IMG/VR virus record: IMGVR_UViG_2930430511_000001
Location: 1 to 64,000 of that record
Direction: 5' to 3' (one strand)
From: a virus
Lineage: Duplodnaviria > Caudoviricetes
Length of the DNA: 64,000 nucleotides
The position numbers and the translations under genes are program-made. Of the stretch, positions 4,300 through 15,443 are shown in pieces (position 1 is the stretch's first letter; each line of letters begins with the position of its first letter). Below the pieces are notes generated by a model. It did no database searches. It was not told where the DNA came from and worked only from the letters and a program-made list of their open reading frames with translations.

Positions 4300-4552
4300 C
4301 CCCGCCCACTAGCGCCCATGGCTTCTGCCGGTGGCGTGTTGTGGTGTGGCTGCTCCCGGACGTCGCTACCATGGGAGCGCGGCCATCGGGCCGCGGGCCC
4401 GGCTCGAGGCCCGGTTCGTCTGGCCCAGACCAGGCGAGCAACACCGAAGGTGCCCCGCGCCGAGCCGCCCACCACCCCGCATCACCCTTGCTGGCCTCGC
4501 TCTTGGCGGCCGGTGAGTCTGGGATCACCGCAGCCGTGGAAGAGAGCTTGAG

Positions 4553-7759: not shown

Positions 7760-8146
7760 ATGACCGACACCAACCCCGTCGAGAACCTGTCCAGCGCCGC
7801 CGAGCAGATCCGCGCGTTCAACCACGCCAGTTGGGACACCGACAACGACGACTGGACCTACCCCATCCACACCTACAAGGCCGCCGGCAACCTGTCCCAC
7901 CTCGCGCACATGCTGGGGCAGGCCATCGGGCAGGCCACCCGGCCCGCGATGCGCACTTACGATGACGGCCGCCTGCTCATCGACGGCCAGGGCGATCCGG
8001 ACGCCGCCGTCGTACAGATGCTGGCCGCCAGCGAGGATGCCGTCCAGCACGCGCAGGACCTCGCGGCCGCGCTTGACCGGCTGCACTCCGCCACGTCCGC
8101 CATGGGCGTGGACACCGATGGACTGCCGGGATTCGACGAGGGGTGA
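7760..8146 (+). CDS. Helical hypothetical protein (probable paralog of 10078-10431)
   Basis: AEQIRAFNHAS...YP motif; good codon usage. Confidence 0.75.
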   Translation: MTDTNPVENLSSAAEQIRAFNHASWDTDNDDWTYPIHTYKAAGNLSHLAHMLGQAIGQATRPAMRTYDDGRLLIDGQGDPDAAVVQMLAASEDAVQHAQDLAAALDRLHSATSAMGVDTDGLPGFDEG

Positions 8147-8266
8147 CCTTCCGCGGCCGGCTGCACTCGCCCCTGGCCGCCAGCCGGGATCCCGGAGCCG
8201 TTCGGCCTTGAGCTGGACACCGGCAGCCTCTGACCGACGCCGCGATCAGCGTCACGGGGAATCCCC

Positions 8267-8295
8267 TTGCGCTTCCTAACTTAGGAAGCTACTGT
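8267..8295 (+). promoter_or_regulatory. Promoter TTGCGC-N17-TACTGT with operator palindrome GCTTCCTAA-C-TTAGGAAGC
   Basis: Perfect 9-bp arms at 8271-8289 spanning the spacer. Confidence 0.8.
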
Positions 8296-8348
8296 TGTCG
8301 CCATGAGGTCAGGGGAAAGCCCCAGACCCGGACCGGAAGGACCCGGCC

Positions 8349-8660
8349 ATGACCGTCCGCCACTTCACCGCCTGGCTCGTCAACGACCCGTCGGCTCTCG
8401 ACCAGCCCTGCATGGACATCGCCATCCTCGAAGACGAGCTGATCGCGGGCGACCCCGAGGATGACGGCAGCTGGGGCACCGACTCCAGCAAGCCCACCGC
8501 CTTCTACGCCGTCACCAAGGTCGACGCCCGGGACGGCGACGCCCAGGACGGCATCGACGAGGCCGAGGACCTGATGAGCGCGGCCGGATGGCGGACCGTC
8601 GGCAACTGGGACACCGTCGACAACGCGTACATCGTGACCGTCGAGCGCGACGACAACTGA
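8349..8660 (+). CDS. Small highly acidic protein, candidate anti-CRISPR/anti-defence protein
   Basis: 103 aa, very D/E-rich, directly upstream of an Aca2-like HTH; function inferred from context only. Confidence 0.6.
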   Translation: MTVRHFTAWLVNDPSALDQPCMDIAILEDELIAGDPEDDGSWGTDSSKPTAFYAVTKVDARDGDAQDGIDEAEDLMSAAGWRTVGNWDTVDNAYIVTVERDDN

Positions 8661-8699
8661 CCCTCCCCGCGCCCCCGGTCCCCCACCGGGGGCGTCCCC

Positions 8700-9137
8700 A
8701 TGCCTGGAGTTCAAATGGCAGAGCAGACCTACACCGACCCGCCCGGCATGCCCGAGGACGAACGGATGACCCCGGCCGAGTTCAAGGTCGTGCGCGAGTT
8801 CCTCGGCCTGACCGGGGACTGGCTCGCCCAGCATCTCGGCGTCTCATCGCGCACCGTGCGCCACTGGGAGCAGGGCAAGTACCCCATCCCCGACGGCGTG
8901 CGCCTGGAGATGGAGGACCTCGAGCGGCGCACCGGCGAGTTCATCAGCGGCATCGTCAACAAGCTCATGGACCTGCCCGACCCCGGCGCGATCACCTATC
9001 GGGACGACGCCGAGTACCGCGCGGCGCACCCGAACGAGGACTGGCCCGCCTCCTGGCACCGTGCCGTCGTTGCGCGCGTCGCCCAGGAGGTACCTACTCT
9101 GTCCATCGCCTTCGCCAGTGACCTGCCTGCCAGCTGA
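8700..9137 (+). CDS. Aca2/YdiL (DUF1870)-like HTH regulator
   Basis: MTPAEFKVVREFLGLT..WLA..GVSSRTVRHWEQGKYPIPDGV, plus C-terminal TYRDDAEY...WHRAVVARV. Confidence 0.75.
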   Translation: MPGVQMAEQTYTDPPGMPEDERMTPAEFKVVREFLGLTGDWLAQHLGVSSRTVRHWEQGKYPIPDGVRLEMEDLERRTGEFISGIVNKLMDLPDPGAITYRDDAEYRAAHPNEDWPASWHRAVVARVAQEVPTLSIAFASDLPAS

Positions 9138-9234
9138 TCAGCACCACGCCCCGCCCGACCCCTCCGGCGCGGGGCGTCCCGCCGCCTACCCGGGGAGGGG
9201 CAATGCCTGCCCGGATCCGCGCCAGCATGGACGG

Positions 9235-9990
9235 ATGCCAACTCTCCCCGTGCAGCACTGCACCCTCGACACCCGCGGCCTCCCCGCCGACGACCCCGCA
9301 ACCGCCGCCGCGGGCGTTCCCGCGCCGCGCACCGCGACCACCGACACCGCCACCGGCGGCCTCACCTCCAAGGGCCCCGTCTTCATGGGCACCGGGTGGA
9401 GGATCACCGCCCAGTTCCGCACCTACTGCCTATCCCCGTCCCAGCAGTACCTGATCACGTTCCCGTCACAGGCCCTCAAGGACAGGTACATCCCCTTCCT
9501 CACCGCCGCCGTCAACCAGCTCAAGGCCATAGGCCTGAACATCGACTTCGGCGACATCGAGACGTTCGACTACAGCGTCATCCCGCCCCGCGGCCACATC
9601 CAGTACGGCGACGTATACCGCCCCCTCGGAACCGCCGGCACCTCCCAAGGCCTCCCCTGCTACAACCGGGCTGACAACAGCGTGTGGGGCGGGTACGCGC
9701 GCATCGACTCCGAGTACTGGGACGGCAGCTGGTACCTGACCGACACCGTCAGGAAGAACCTCCTGATCCACGAGTTGGGCCACACCCTCGGCCTCGACCA
9801 CCCCAACAGCGACATGAACAGCGACGGGATCATCGACCGGTTCGAGGTCGTCAAGGACGCCGGCGTCTCCCCGACCATGACCAGCCCCAACGGCGGCTAC
9901 CAGGACAGCCGTGCCGGCACGTACACCACGTACGACCTGGCCGGCTTCAAGCAGCTCCTCGCCAACGCCCCCATCCTCGGCGTCAGCTGA
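9235..9990 (+). CDS. Metzincin (matrixin-like) zinc metalloprotease
   Basis: HELGHTLGLDH zinc motif, Met-turn SPTMT; class B leaderless promoter at 9197-9228. Confidence 0.85.
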   Translation: MPTLPVQHCTLDTRGLPADDPATAAAGVPAPRTATTDTATGGLTSKGPVFMGTGWRITAQFRTYCLSPSQQYLITFPSQALKDRYIPFLTAAVNQLKAIGLNIDFGDIETFDYSVIPPRGHIQYGDVYRPLGTAGTSQGLPCYNRADNSVWGGYARIDSEYWDGSWYLTDTVRKNLLIHELGHTLGLDHPNSDMNSDGIIDRFEVVKDAGVSPTMTSPNGGYQDSRAGTYTTYDLAGFKQLLANAPILGVS

Positions 9991-10699: not shown

Positions 10700-10960
10700 A
10701 TGGCCACCTCCGCTGCACCCCAGCCCGCCCGTAGCGCCAAGTTCTTCCAGCCCGGCCACACCTACGCGAGCCTGCGCTTCCGGTTCCACTGTGGGGCGGT
10801 TGCCCCGAACCCGGCCACCGGAGAGACGCGAGCAATCGGATGGCACGGCAGGCTCCGGACCGGCGACGGCGAATGGCTGTGGACCGCAAGTGAGCGGACC
10901 CTCGCCGACTGGTCCGATGGTCACTGGACGGACATCACCGAGAACGGCGACGGCCGATGA
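10700..10960 (+). CDS. Hypothetical phage protein
   Basis: AAGGAG RBS; ATGA coupling to the next gene. Confidence 0.7.
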   Translation: MATSAAPQPARSAKFFQPGHTYASLRFRFHCGAVAPNPATGETRAIGWHGRLRTGDGEWLWTASERTLADWSDGHWTDITENGDGR

Positions 10961-11205
10961 CCGCCACGCCGGCCCTCACCAAAATCCTCGGCCCCGCCCT
11001 CGTCGACTGGCTCGACACCGACGAGCACCGCGACCAGGCCTACGCCCTCCACCAGCTCATCGCCGACCAGGACGGCCCGTACGTAGCGTCCGCGTGGCTC
11101 ATCGGCATGAACCCGCACCTCGGAAATGACTCGCCCCTCAACGCCATCCGCAACGGGCGCGGCGTCGACGCCCGCGAAGCCTCACGCACCTACCTCGACG
11201 GCTGA
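10957..11205 (+). CDS. Stand-alone Xre/MbcA/ParS antitoxin C-terminal-like domain protein
   Basis: ASAWLIGMNPHLGNDSPLNAIRNG matches the W-L-x-x-x-N-x-x-L-G-x-x-x-P pattern. Confidence 0.6.
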   Translation: MTATPALTKILGPALVDWLDTDEHRDQAYALHQLIADQDGPYVASAWLIGMNPHLGNDSPLNAIRNGRGVDAREASRTYLDG

Positions 11206-13484: not shown

Positions 13485-14312
13485 TTGAACAAGGACGCGC
13501 TCAAAGGCCTACTCGAGAGCCGACGCGCCCGCATCGACCCCACCAGCGTCGGCCTCGAACGCACCCAACGCCAAGGCCGCCGCGCCGCCGGCCTCGGCCT
13601 CTCCCAGGAGCAAGTCGACAAAATCGCCGGCTACGGCACCCGTACCTACAGCCGCCTCGTCAACGGCAAAATCCACGACCCCAGCTACCCACTCCTCCGC
13701 GCCTACGCCAACGCCCTCCGTCTCACCGAGCAGGAGTGGGTAGCAATGTGCCGCTACGCCCGCGGCGACGACCGGGACCGTGCCCTCAACCCCCGCTCCG
13801 GCAAAAAGGTCCCCGGCATGTGGGCCGACGCCGTCGAAGGCTTCCGGCACATGGCCTACATCACCGACCAGTCCTACAACCTCCTCGCCCACAACGAGCC
13901 GTTCTCGGACCTGTTCGCCAACCGGCAGCCCCCGCCCAACATGATGGAGTGGATGCTGCTGTCCGAGGCGGCACGCACCACCCTCACCGACTGGCCAACC
14001 GTCTGGGCCCCCTACGTCCTGCCGCAACTGCGCGGAGCCCGCGCCATCCTCCCCGACGACTGCATCCTCGCCGCCATCGAACAGGCCGTCATAGCCGACC
14101 CCGAATGCGGCCCGATGTACGAGGAGCGCACCACCGCCCAAGTCCACCCCGACGGCCAGGAACGCCCCGTTCTCCACCCCCTCCTGGGCCCGGGGTGGGC
14201 GAACATCTGCGCCGCGGAACCCCTCTCGAGCCCCAACGCCCGCCTGATGATCGTGATGTTCTATCCGGGTGTCGGCCCCTCCCACGTCCGCCGGCCACAC
14301 CTCCACGCCTGA
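13485..14312 (+). CDS. XRE-family HTH plus MmyB-type (MLTR) PAS-like ligand-binding regulator
   Basis: LLESRRARIDPTSVGL..GRRAAGLGLSQEQV...YSRL; AYITDQSYNLLAHNEPF..LF, PNMMEWMLL, W..WAP. Confidence 0.9.
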   Translation: MNKDALKGLLESRRARIDPTSVGLERTQRQGRRAAGLGLSQEQVDKIAGYGTRTYSRLVNGKIHDPSYPLLRAYANALRLTEQEWVAMCRYARGDDRDRALNPRSGKKVPGMWADAVEGFRHMAYITDQSYNLLAHNEPFSDLFANRQPPPNMMEWMLLSEAARTTLTDWPTVWAPYVLPQLRGARAILPDDCILAAIEQAVIADPECGPMYEERTTAQVHPDGQERPVLHPLLGPGWANICAAEPLSSPNARLMIVMFYPGVGPSHVRRPHLHA

Positions 14313-14396
14313 CCACCTGGCCCCTGGCACGTCATCGCGGGAAAGCGGCGGAGAGTCGGACCGTAAAGTTGAGGGCCTCACCAGGGGGAGGCCCTC

Positions 14397-15443
14397 ATGC
14401 CTGCACACGTCACCGGCCCCACCGTCGAACACCCAGACAACTGGGTCACGACGGATGAAATCTGCGACAACATCACCCAGCACCACCCCAACCACCCCAA
14501 ACTCGGGACCGTGCTGCGCGTCGTCCGCAACACCGGCGTCCAGACCCGCGCCTTCCACCACCCCCTGGACTCCGACCAGATATCCGGCAGCCTCAGCATC
14601 GCCGACCGCAACCAGCAGGCATGGGTCGACGCCTCCAGCCTCGCCGAAGAAGCCGCGGAGAAGGCCCTCGAGGAGGCCGGCCTCCAGCCTGGCGATATCA
14701 CCGCCATCGTCACCAGCAACACGACCAGCTGGGCCGCGCCGGGCTTGGACGTCCACCTCGTCGAGCAGCTCGGCCTCCGCCCCGACGTACGCCGCGTGGC
14801 GCTGGCCACCGTCGGCTGTATCGGCGGTGCCCAAGCCCTCACCCGCGCCGCGGACCTCGTCACCGCACACGGCTCCCGCGTTCTCGTCGTCGTGTCCGAG
14901 GCGCTCTCCACCATCTACCACCACGCGGACACGTCCCTGGAGTCGATGATCTACAAGGCCTTGTTCGGGGACGCCGCCACTGCCTGCATCGTCACCGCCG
15001 AGCCCCTCCAGCCGGGTGTGCGCATCGACGACACCTGGGAGTACCTGCTGCCCAACTCCCGCGACCGCTTCTGGGGAAGCCTGCTGGAAACCCACATCCG
15101 CTTCGACTCCACCAAGGCCGCCACCAGGGCACCCGCGGACGCCATGCCCGCACTCGTCGACTGGCTCAAGCAGCGCGACGCCGTCACCCCGGACTGGGCA
15201 GTCGTCCACGCCGGCAGTCCCGCGATCCTCACCGCGGCGCAGCAAGGCCTCAGCCTCACCGGCGCCCAGCTCCAGCACTCCCACGCCAGCCTCGCCCAGG
15301 TCGGAAACCTCGGCGGCAGCTCCGTCCTGGATGTCCTGCGCCGCACCCACGACACCCCGCCCGCCGACGGCGCGACAGGCCTGATGCTCGCCTACGGGCC
15401 CGGGTTCACCACCACCGCACTCACGGGCACCTGGGTCAGCTGA
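14397..15443 (+). CDS. Type III polyketide synthase (chalcone synthase superfamily)
   Basis: Cys-His-Asn triad (TVGCIGG, VVHAGS, GNLGG), ALFGDAA, AYGPGF. Confidence 0.93.
   Translation: MPAHVTGPTVEHPDNWVTTDEICDNITQHHPNHPKLGTVLRVVRNTGVQTRAFHHPLDSDQISGSLSIADRNQQAWVDASSLAEEAAEKALEEAGLQPGDITAIVTSNTTSWAAPGLDVHLVEQLGLRPDVRRVALATVGCIGGAQALTRAADLVTAHGSRVLVVVSEALSTIYHHADTSLESMIYKALFGDAATACIVTAEPLQPGVRIDDTWEYLLPNSRDRFWGSLLETHIRFDSTKAATRAPADAMPALVDWLKQRDAVTPDWAVVHAGSPAILTAAQQGLSLTGAQLQHSHASLAQVGNLGGSSVLDVLRRTHDTPPADGATGLMLAYGPGFTTTALTGTWVS

Follow-up and report, generated by a model that had tools for sequence, protein, structure and literature searches.

The first 64,000 nucleotides of IMG/VR virus record IMGVR_UViG_2930430511_000001 (hereafter the window) carry, at positions 8267–9177 of the + strand, a compact operon that consists of a promoter/operator, a leader, a gene for a small acidic protein (hereafter the cargo), a stem-loop, a gene for an Aca2-family helix-turn-helix (HTH) regulator, and a terminator-like hairpin. 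We read it, with moderate confidence, as an Aca2-autoregulated accessory operon whose cargo acts against host defense. Aca2-type regulation of the operon is very likely, and an anti-defense role for the cargo, assigned by association, is reasonably probable; CRISPR-Cas as the specific target of the cargo has no specific support. An earlier note on this DNA had described the promoter with an inverted repeat in its spacer, a hairpin in the 5′ untranslated region (5′-UTR), a very acidic open reading frame (ORF) of 103 amino acids, an Aca2/YdiL-like HTH gene, and a terminator-like hairpin, and the analysis below bears out each of these elements.

The Aca2-family regulator, its predicted operator, and the RNA hairpins

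The downstream gene of the operon (8700–9137 as the longest frame, + strand) encodes, judging by its score above the PF08965 cut-off and its matches to solved Aca2 chains, a true Aca2-family protein. Against PF08965 (Aca2_YdiL, formerly DUF1870) the product scored 31.3 bits with a cut-off of 23.8, with residues 25–112 aligned to positions 3–93 of the 118-position profile, and a genome-wide profile search returned the same protein at 31.4 bits. In a phmmer search, residues 23–114 aligned to residues 5–97 of 8w35_A (E = 4.3e-9), with similar matches to 7vjo_B and 7b5j_A (E values up to 2.3e-8); as a sequence alignment, this match spans both the HTH and the C-terminal dimerization region. The HigA-2 antitoxin (5jaa) matched about five orders of magnitude worse than the Aca2 chains (E = 0.0012), YdiL itself gave an E value of 0.5, and Xre-type antitoxin HTH models matched the regulator below their cut-offs. 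Translation probably starts at the ATG at 8715 rather than at 8700, giving a protein of 140 amino acids, because a GGAG lies at 8706–8709 and homologous proteins start at the corresponding residue. A conserved N-terminal extension of the regulator, with the consensus YTDPPGMPEDERM, precedes the part aligned to the solved Aca2 chains.

For the Aca2 protein of Pectobacterium phage ZF40, Arg30, Tyr34, and Arg39 have been described as essential for DNA binding, with GTTC as the half-site (PMC8633003). In our alignment, Arg30 is kept as R51, Tyr34 is replaced by H55, and Arg39 is replaced by K60; the two replacements would fit a different operator. The half-site here is CTTCC, which has TTC in common with the GTTC of ZF40.

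To compare this arrangement across loci, we combined 30 genome-contig and 23 viral-contig loci from regulator searches (nine contigs were shared) with five plasmid or phage records and the window itself, for a total of 50 distinct loci. These loci derive from Streptomyces, Streptosporangium, Actinoplanes, Micromonospora, Amycolatopsis, Nocardiopsis, Nocardia, and Pseudonocardia, among others. A profile of the segment from promoter to ATG placed the full promoter/operator/leader module upstream of the regulator in 43 of the 50 distinct aca loci; two of the seven lacking it are truncated by contig ends, and the other five have the most distant regulators (51–67% identity). The module alignment contains 42 loci, namely 41 of the 43 module-bearing aca loci (all except L031 and L058) together with L006, which has the module and no aca2.

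Upstream of the cargo gene, a −35-like hexamer, TTGCGC (8267–8272, + strand), and a −10-like hexamer, TACTGT (8290–8295, + strand, of the form TAnnnT), are separated by 17 nt. The spacer is taken up by a perfect inverted repeat found by a repeat search, GCTTCCTAA-C-TTAGGAAGC (8271–8289, arms of 9+9 nt), which overlaps the final two bases of the −35 hexamer and is predicted to be the site of an Aca2 dimer. We call this a promoter because of positional conservation (TTG...TAnnnT), not because of a consensus score: almost every one of the 42 aligned loci keeps the TTG, and the position of the −10-like hexamer is also conserved among them. Transcription would start at approximately 8301–8304. Even with three mismatches allowed, a scan of the 64-kb window yields a single occurrence of the operator pattern (0.02 expected), and a looser pattern likewise occurs once in the full 89,706-bp record.

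The arms of the repeat are paired in 85% of cells across the 42 loci, both sides have changed in six of nine pairs, and the covariation score was exceeded by none of 500 shuffles. Two loci, L006 and L072, have an unrelated basic regulator of about 80 amino acids in place of Aca2, and there a different perfect palindrome occupies the space between −35 and −10. The compensatory changes, together with the appearance of a different palindrome exactly where the regulator has been replaced, support the view that the promoter repeat behaves as the operator of the downstream regulator, for which binding is predicted. The operator replacement in L006 and L072 is the best evidence here that the repeat would serve whichever regulator lies downstream.

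The leader is approximately 47 nt long and is predicted to fold into two hairpins. Hairpin 1 (8307–8328, + strand; GGTC-A-GGGG-loop-CCCC-A-GACC) is the 5′-UTR hairpin of the earlier note; it was recovered by single-sequence folding, its helix is paired in 94% of cells over the 42 loci, and its sequence is strongly conserved, with compensatory changes at two pairs. Hairpin 2 (8330–8348, + strand), which the earlier note does not mention, is also supported by folding and conservation. Its core pairs the CCGG at 8333–8336 with the CCGG at 8343–8346, the loop between them, AAGGAC, contains the ribosome-binding site, and the last base of the hairpin adjoins the ATG at 8349. The inner four pairs of hairpin 2 hold in 38–40 of the 42 loci, with swaps from CG to UA or GC; the outer two are not conserved and are particular to a few loci. 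Double changes affect six of the 14 pairs in the RNA stems, and the covariation score lies above 500 of 500 shuffles and drops when the partners are slid, although this shuffle control ignores the relatedness of the loci, and covariation supports the structures without proving them.

Published work describes Aca2 as binding two conserved 5′-UTR hairpins, with the transcription start 10–15 nt past the DNA motif, and refers to “actino” and “proteo” RNA motifs defined earlier (PMC13551039, citing its reference 11). By analogy, the leader here is likely the published actino motif. Rfam, which has no actino-motif family, gave no match in the window that reached the gathering score, and its matches at E ≤ 10 for 8150–9300 were noise. 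As a separate observation, the viral contig of L058 has two operator-leader modules (766–832 and 2543–2602) about 1.8 kb apart, such that one regulator may serve two operons.

Between the two genes lies a GC-rich stem-loop (8669–8695, + strand; 11 pairs and a 5-nt loop), which was identified by repeat search and folding and is a further addition to the earlier description. Of 40 loci inspected for such a structure, 38 have a GC-rich stem-loop of 8–17 pairs in the gap from cargo to aca2, each with its own sequence and often with a few Ts and a GGAG behind it. The stem-loop at 8669–8695 is likely an attenuator or a 3′-end stabilizer of the cargo message. The operon ends with a terminator-like hairpin (9146–9177, + strand), also found by repeat search, which has perfect 9-nt arms (9146–9154 and 9169–9177) and no T-tract; its position after the stop codon suggests a terminator role.

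Acidic cargo proteins and their exchange among loci

The cargo gene (8349–8660, + strand) encodes a 103-amino-acid protein with 24 Asp/Glu and 6 Lys/Arg residues, a pI of 4.05, and a net charge of about −18, which we consider a candidate inhibitor of host defense. Its third-position G+C fraction (GC3) of 0.95 is typical of a genuine gene in this DNA. The protein belongs to a group that we term family A. A word-indexed search found 76 relatives, all from Streptomyces or soil metagenomes and several of them on contigs of 89–97 kb, and an exhaustive profile search at E ≤ 0.001 found 161 cluster representatives, many with additional domains.

An AlphaFold2 model of family A built from 63 sequences is a confident one, beta-rich with one long helix (pLDDT 83.6, pTM 0.69). 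The cargo matched no Pfam or PHROG family at E values up to 1, and nine other cargo or regulator representatives gave nothing above the cut-off in Pfam. A cargo profile run against PDB sequences matched only a designed propeller, without a matched stretch, and tblastn of the cargo against 50,697 phage records gave no match. Foldseek against the PDB found no solved fold for the family A model (best E = 0.22), and VIA-align against 48,161 chains reached a best Z of 4.8 (6xyb_A; root-mean-square deviation (rmsd) 4.0 with 77 residues aligned). In BFVD, the model matched two unnamed or uncharacterized actinophage proteins (E ∼2e-6), none with a function, and in the ESM Atlas the cargo matched unnamed Actinomycetota clusters alone (best score 0.87). 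A model of the second commonest cargo family, family B, built from only 8 sequences (pLDDT 84.1) likewise gave no match of note in fold searches (best E = 0.39, best Z = 4.2). A match of family B, and of no other family, to T4 Arn (Z = 3.9, rmsd 5.3) was within noise.

The slot between the leader and aca2 usually holds a single gene, and two genes in 10 of 43 operons. Among the loci with the module, the gene adjoining aca2 is always acidic: 41 of 42 cargo proteins have a pI below 4.5, whereas the same crude gene caller gave 109 other small ORFs in the flanks of these loci, 12 of them below that pI. These cargo counts omit L044 and L057, in which no cargo was called at the GC3 threshold, and L042, which has a long gap. 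In the ten three-gene operons (L018, 2050–2556, and nine others), the first gene encodes a basic protein of about 170 amino acids with a weak N-terminal match to HTH_17 (E = 0.0012, below the cut-off). The two-hairpin motif recurs immediately before the acidic gene in five of these ten loci; RNA motifs have also been reported between genes inside Aca2 operons (PMC13551039).

Classified by domain, the 42 cargo proteins comprise 23 of family A, 8 of family B, 3 of family C/E (the short domain alone), 2 of family D (including gp86 of phage Gilgamesh), 3 of the Cys-rich family F, and 3 singletons. Of the 23 family A proteins, five are extended by an N-terminal domain and one is joined to a family B domain. 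The slot, which the earlier note had singled out for comparison among close homologues, is thus not invariant: at least seven families occupy it that are not linked to one another by BLASTP or jackhmmer, with the jackhmmer result for links among B, C, and E being uncertain for so tiny and compositionally biased a set.

Exchange of cargo is also apparent between closely related regulators. The Aca2 proteins, which are mostly 70–84% identical, have unrelated cargo in the sister pairs L015/L022 (96% support) and L021/L026 (91%). At L008 the Aca2 protein is 84% identical and the family A cargo only 55%, and regulators of 82% (L010) and 81% (L011) identity accompany cargo of families D and B, respectively. 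Cargo type requires 17 changes on a tree of 34 regulators, in which resolution is poor and no more than two branches are starred, versus 19.1±0.9 with shuffled labels (17 or fewer in 17 of 300 shuffles).

Cargo and regulator also occur as single proteins. Family A, a linker domain, and Aca2 are joined in one chain in L003 (331 amino acids), P0085, and P0106; the PF08965 scores are 30.5 bits for P0085 and, below the cut-off, 18.5 bits for P0106. Family A is fused to the alternative regulator in P0090, P0102, and P0122, and further fusions of cargo with this regulator are found in L075 and L076. The alternative regulator, which has the motif form VAEHLGY...SARK.LSR.GV., looks like an undescribed Aca-like family that either stands in for Aca2 or forms one protein with cargo of family A or B, and its operons have a perfect palindrome of their own between −35 and −10; the regulator lies at 4394–4636 in L006, 1880–2083 in L072, 1195–1722 in L075, 130–663 in L076, and 919–1752 in L077. 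A tblastn search of plasmids found three alternative-regulator loci, and scans with P0102 and the L072 regulator gave no useful further ones.

Proposed circuit and competing explanations

From these features we infer the binding events, the transcription start, the attenuation, and the anti-defense role that make up the following circuit. Upon entry of the element, the promoter at 8267–8295 would fire, and the ∼47-nt leader would fold into its two hairpins, the second of which would show the ribosome-binding site beside the start codon, so that the acidic cargo would be produced as a burst. The GC-rich stem-loop past the cargo gene would pass only part of the transcription, or of the stable message, to aca2, which has its own ribosome-binding site. 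As Aca2 builds up, a dimer would occupy the 19-bp inverted repeat between −35 and −10 and switch the promoter off, and, by analogy with published Aca2, the protein may also bind the leader hairpins and block translation of the cargo. The cargo itself would most likely be a stoichiometric inhibitor of a host nucleic-acid-binding defense or silencing factor, acting through charge mimicry. We regard the cargo as an arms-race accessory gene because unrelated families are exchanged behind a conserved regulator, because regulator fusions occur, and because the signals suggest an excess of cargo over regulator. The exchanged proteins are uniformly and strongly acidic, which suggests that they share one type of target, a basic nucleic-acid-binding protein, and charge alone would point to mimicry of nucleic acid.

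Several observations weigh against this interpretation. No cargo family could be linked to a known anti-CRISPR (Acr) protein, to Ocr, to ArdA, or to any other anti-defense family in Pfam, PHROGs, PDB sequences, or fold searches. Acidity is fairly common in the window, where 5 of 20 small ORFs have a pI below 4.5, and family A fills 23 of the 42 slots, which, as far as the gene in the window is concerned, makes the slot less variable than the number of families implies. The five distant Aca2-like genes mentioned above lie in other contexts, with no module and no acidic gene in front; membership in the HTH family therefore does not by itself imply an acr operon. Each promoter hexamer matches the E. 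coli sigma-70 consensus at three of six positions, which is weak by E. coli rules, and a simple consensus scanner called neither a promoter nor a T-tract terminator in 7900–9500. The stability of the leader is not markedly above that of shuffled sequence (z = −1.76). Furthermore, the two-hairpin leader persists, with altered sequence, in L006 and L072, both of which are without Aca2, and no PF08965 gene was found anywhere on the L006 plasmid. The leader hairpins thus need not be specific to Aca2 and may not depend on it.

We considered three other explanations. According to the main one, the operon is regulated by Aca2 and the cargo serves the phage program or host takeover rather than blocking immunity, as an anti-repressor directed at the immunity repressor of the phage or as an inhibitor of a host nucleoid or silencing protein such as Lsr2, of host RNA polymerase, or of a nuclease. 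The missing link between the cargo and any known anti-defense family is in keeping with this view, as is the acidity of unrelated cargo proteins, which fits any basic DNA-binding target and not defense alone. Lsr2 represses foreign DNA of lower G+C, and the 68.7% G+C of the element is below that of typical Streptomyces chromosomes; the basic HTH-like first gene in 10 of the 43 operons, moreover, hints at regulatory traffic. We nonetheless hold this explanation to be somewhat unlikely, since unrelated cargo behind one regulator is the signature of an arms race, whereas a core lysogeny switch should co-vary with the phage repressor, and since published Aca2 operons carry Acr or other anti-defense genes (PMC13551039).

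The two remaining explanations fit the data poorly. In one of them, the cargo would pair with or antagonize the Aca2-like repressor itself, as a DNA mimic that sits on the HTH and relieves repression in a two-protein switch. The constant adjacency of the two genes, the single-chain fusions of family A to Aca2 (L003, P0085, P0106), and the cargo fusions to the alternative regulator (P0090, P0102, P0122, L075, L076) would all be accommodated by such a switch, yet one conserved Aca2 faces at least seven unlinked cargo families, all of which are unlikely to bind it specifically, and the sister Aca2 proteins of L015/L022 and L021/L026 differ in cargo; in addition, the known Acr-HTH fusions are described as regulatory only (PMC8633003). 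We consider this partnership quite improbable. We give even less credence to a toxin-antitoxin or abortive-infection pair in HigB-HigA order, in which the upstream gene would encode a toxin and the downstream gene an HTH antitoxin acting as repressor of the operon. Type II systems do have a similar gene order and promoter repeat, and the regulator has the weak HigA-2 match (5jaa) and the Xre-type matches below their cut-offs, but the Aca2 chains match far better. The possibility, raised in the earlier note, that the upstream gene is a toxin found no footing among known families: with a pI of 4.05, the protein has no Pfam or PHROG family at E values up to 1 and no nuclease or RelE-like family, and unrelated proteins fill its slot. 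A stem-loop that lowers downstream expression would also be the wrong way round for an antitoxin needed in excess, and the two halves occur naturally as fusions.

A bolder form of the favored anti-defense reading, which we put forward tentatively and regard as unlikely, is a cassette system, in which at least seven unrelated families of extremely acidic proteins, often with their own two-hairpin leader, would be shuffled behind interchangeable repressors, either Aca2 or the unrelated HTH protein of about 80 amino acids with its own palindrome and occasional cargo fusions, and all would act as nucleic-acid mimics against Streptomyces defenses or Lsr2.

The host element, related systems, and significance

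The source record is 89,706 bp long with direct terminal repeats and is rated complete; the window covers its first 64 kb. It encodes a DnaB-like helicase, ParA, an integrase, and a WhiB-like factor, as well as tape measure, minor tail, and Dit-like tail proteins, and the phage nearest to its tail region is Streptomyces phage ZL12 (66.9% identity over 43% of 7.9 kb). Circular Streptomyces plasmids of 88–93 kb also carry the operon, as do one linear 120-kb plasmid and phage Gilgamesh. Based on its replication, partition, integrase, and tail genes, its likeness to ZL12, and this distribution of the operon on plasmids and a phage, the record is, by gene content, a temperate phage-plasmid of the phiZL12 kind from Streptomyces.

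Several neighboring genes deserve mention. Immediately 3′ of the terminator-like hairpin, a 251-amino-acid ORF (9235–9990, + strand) contains the motif HELGHTLGLDH (HExxHxxGxxH, metzincin-like) and has no Pfam match at E ≤ 0.001; a near-identical ORF of this type occupies the same position 3′ of the cargo-regulator fusion on the S. platensis plasmid NZ_CP108975 (L075, 1832–2590). An 82-amino-acid ORF (10957–11205, + strand) weakly matches an Xre/MbcA/ParS antitoxin C-terminal domain (E = 0.0019, 18.6 bits with a cut-off of 24.5). An MmyB-like HTH regulator adjoins a type III polyketide synthase (13485–15443, + strand), and the same pair, annotated as PhlD and an HTH regulator, is present on the related plasmids L002, L003, and L006. 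On several plasmids, a conserved protein of about 290 amino acids (C-terminal ...HRWVVSGHWR...KVNVWRR) is encoded 3′ of the operon (7107–7985 in L001, 7079–8080 in L003, and 4633–5517 in L006); in the window it does not follow the operon.

The closest characterized counterpart of the operon is acrIF8-aca2 of Pectobacterium phage ZF40 (PDB codes 7B5J, 7VJO–7VJQ, and 8W35), which has the same regulator family and the same order, with cargo first and aca2 second. The two share an inverted repeat that overlaps the promoter and two 5′-UTR hairpins beside the ribosome-binding site (PMC13551039), as well as the equivalent of Arg30 and the TTC core of the half-site (PMC8633003). By analogy, the layout fits the published acr-aca2 architecture, and the regulatory design fits the published scheme point for point. 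Unlike the ZF40 operon, the operon described here belongs to an Actinomycetota host and a ∼90-kb phage-plasmid and has another operator sequence; its regulator has the N-terminal extension YTDPPGMPEDERM and the replacements of Tyr34 by His and Arg39 by Lys; a GC-rich stem-loop separates cargo from aca2 (38 of 40 loci); and the candidate cargo is unrelated to AcrIF8. Fusions of an Acr to an HTH are known from AcrIIA1 and AcrIIA13–15 (PMC8633003) and from AcrIF24 (PMC9638941). L003, P0085, and P0106 would similarly put inhibitor and autorepressor in one protein, whereas the genes in the window are separate and the candidate inhibitor half is unrelated in sequence to those of the known fusions.

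Acidic DNA mimics with anti-defense roles include Ocr, ArdA, Arn, AcrIF2, and AcrIIA4. The cargo resembles them in being small, strongly acidic, phage-encoded, and expected early, and differs in that no similarity of sequence or fold to them was found. Literature searches combining Aca2 with Streptomyces and DUF1870 with phage returned no paper on these proteins and none that pairs Aca2 in its anti-CRISPR sense with Streptomyces, and we know of no characterized anti-CRISPR or anti-restriction protein of Streptomyces phages. Were the cassette system described above to exist, the leader would be a portable module for translational control, independent of the repressor present, and the cargo families would be actinophage anti-defense proteins with new folds, to our knowledge the first such family for Streptomyces.

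Many unannotated genes under Aca2 motifs have been put forward as anti-defense candidates (PMC13551039). The present comparison supplies a candidate list, consisting of family A with its 161 cluster representatives and at least six other families, together with a conserved operator and leader with which more can be found. Together, the operator, the two-hairpin leader, and the intercistronic stem-loop also form a compact design for pulse expression in high-G+C bacteria that lends itself to testing. If the cargo proteins are indeed inhibitors of host defense, they would help explain the host range of actinophages and phage-plasmids, and they could ease the transfer of DNA into antibiotic producers that are hard to transform.

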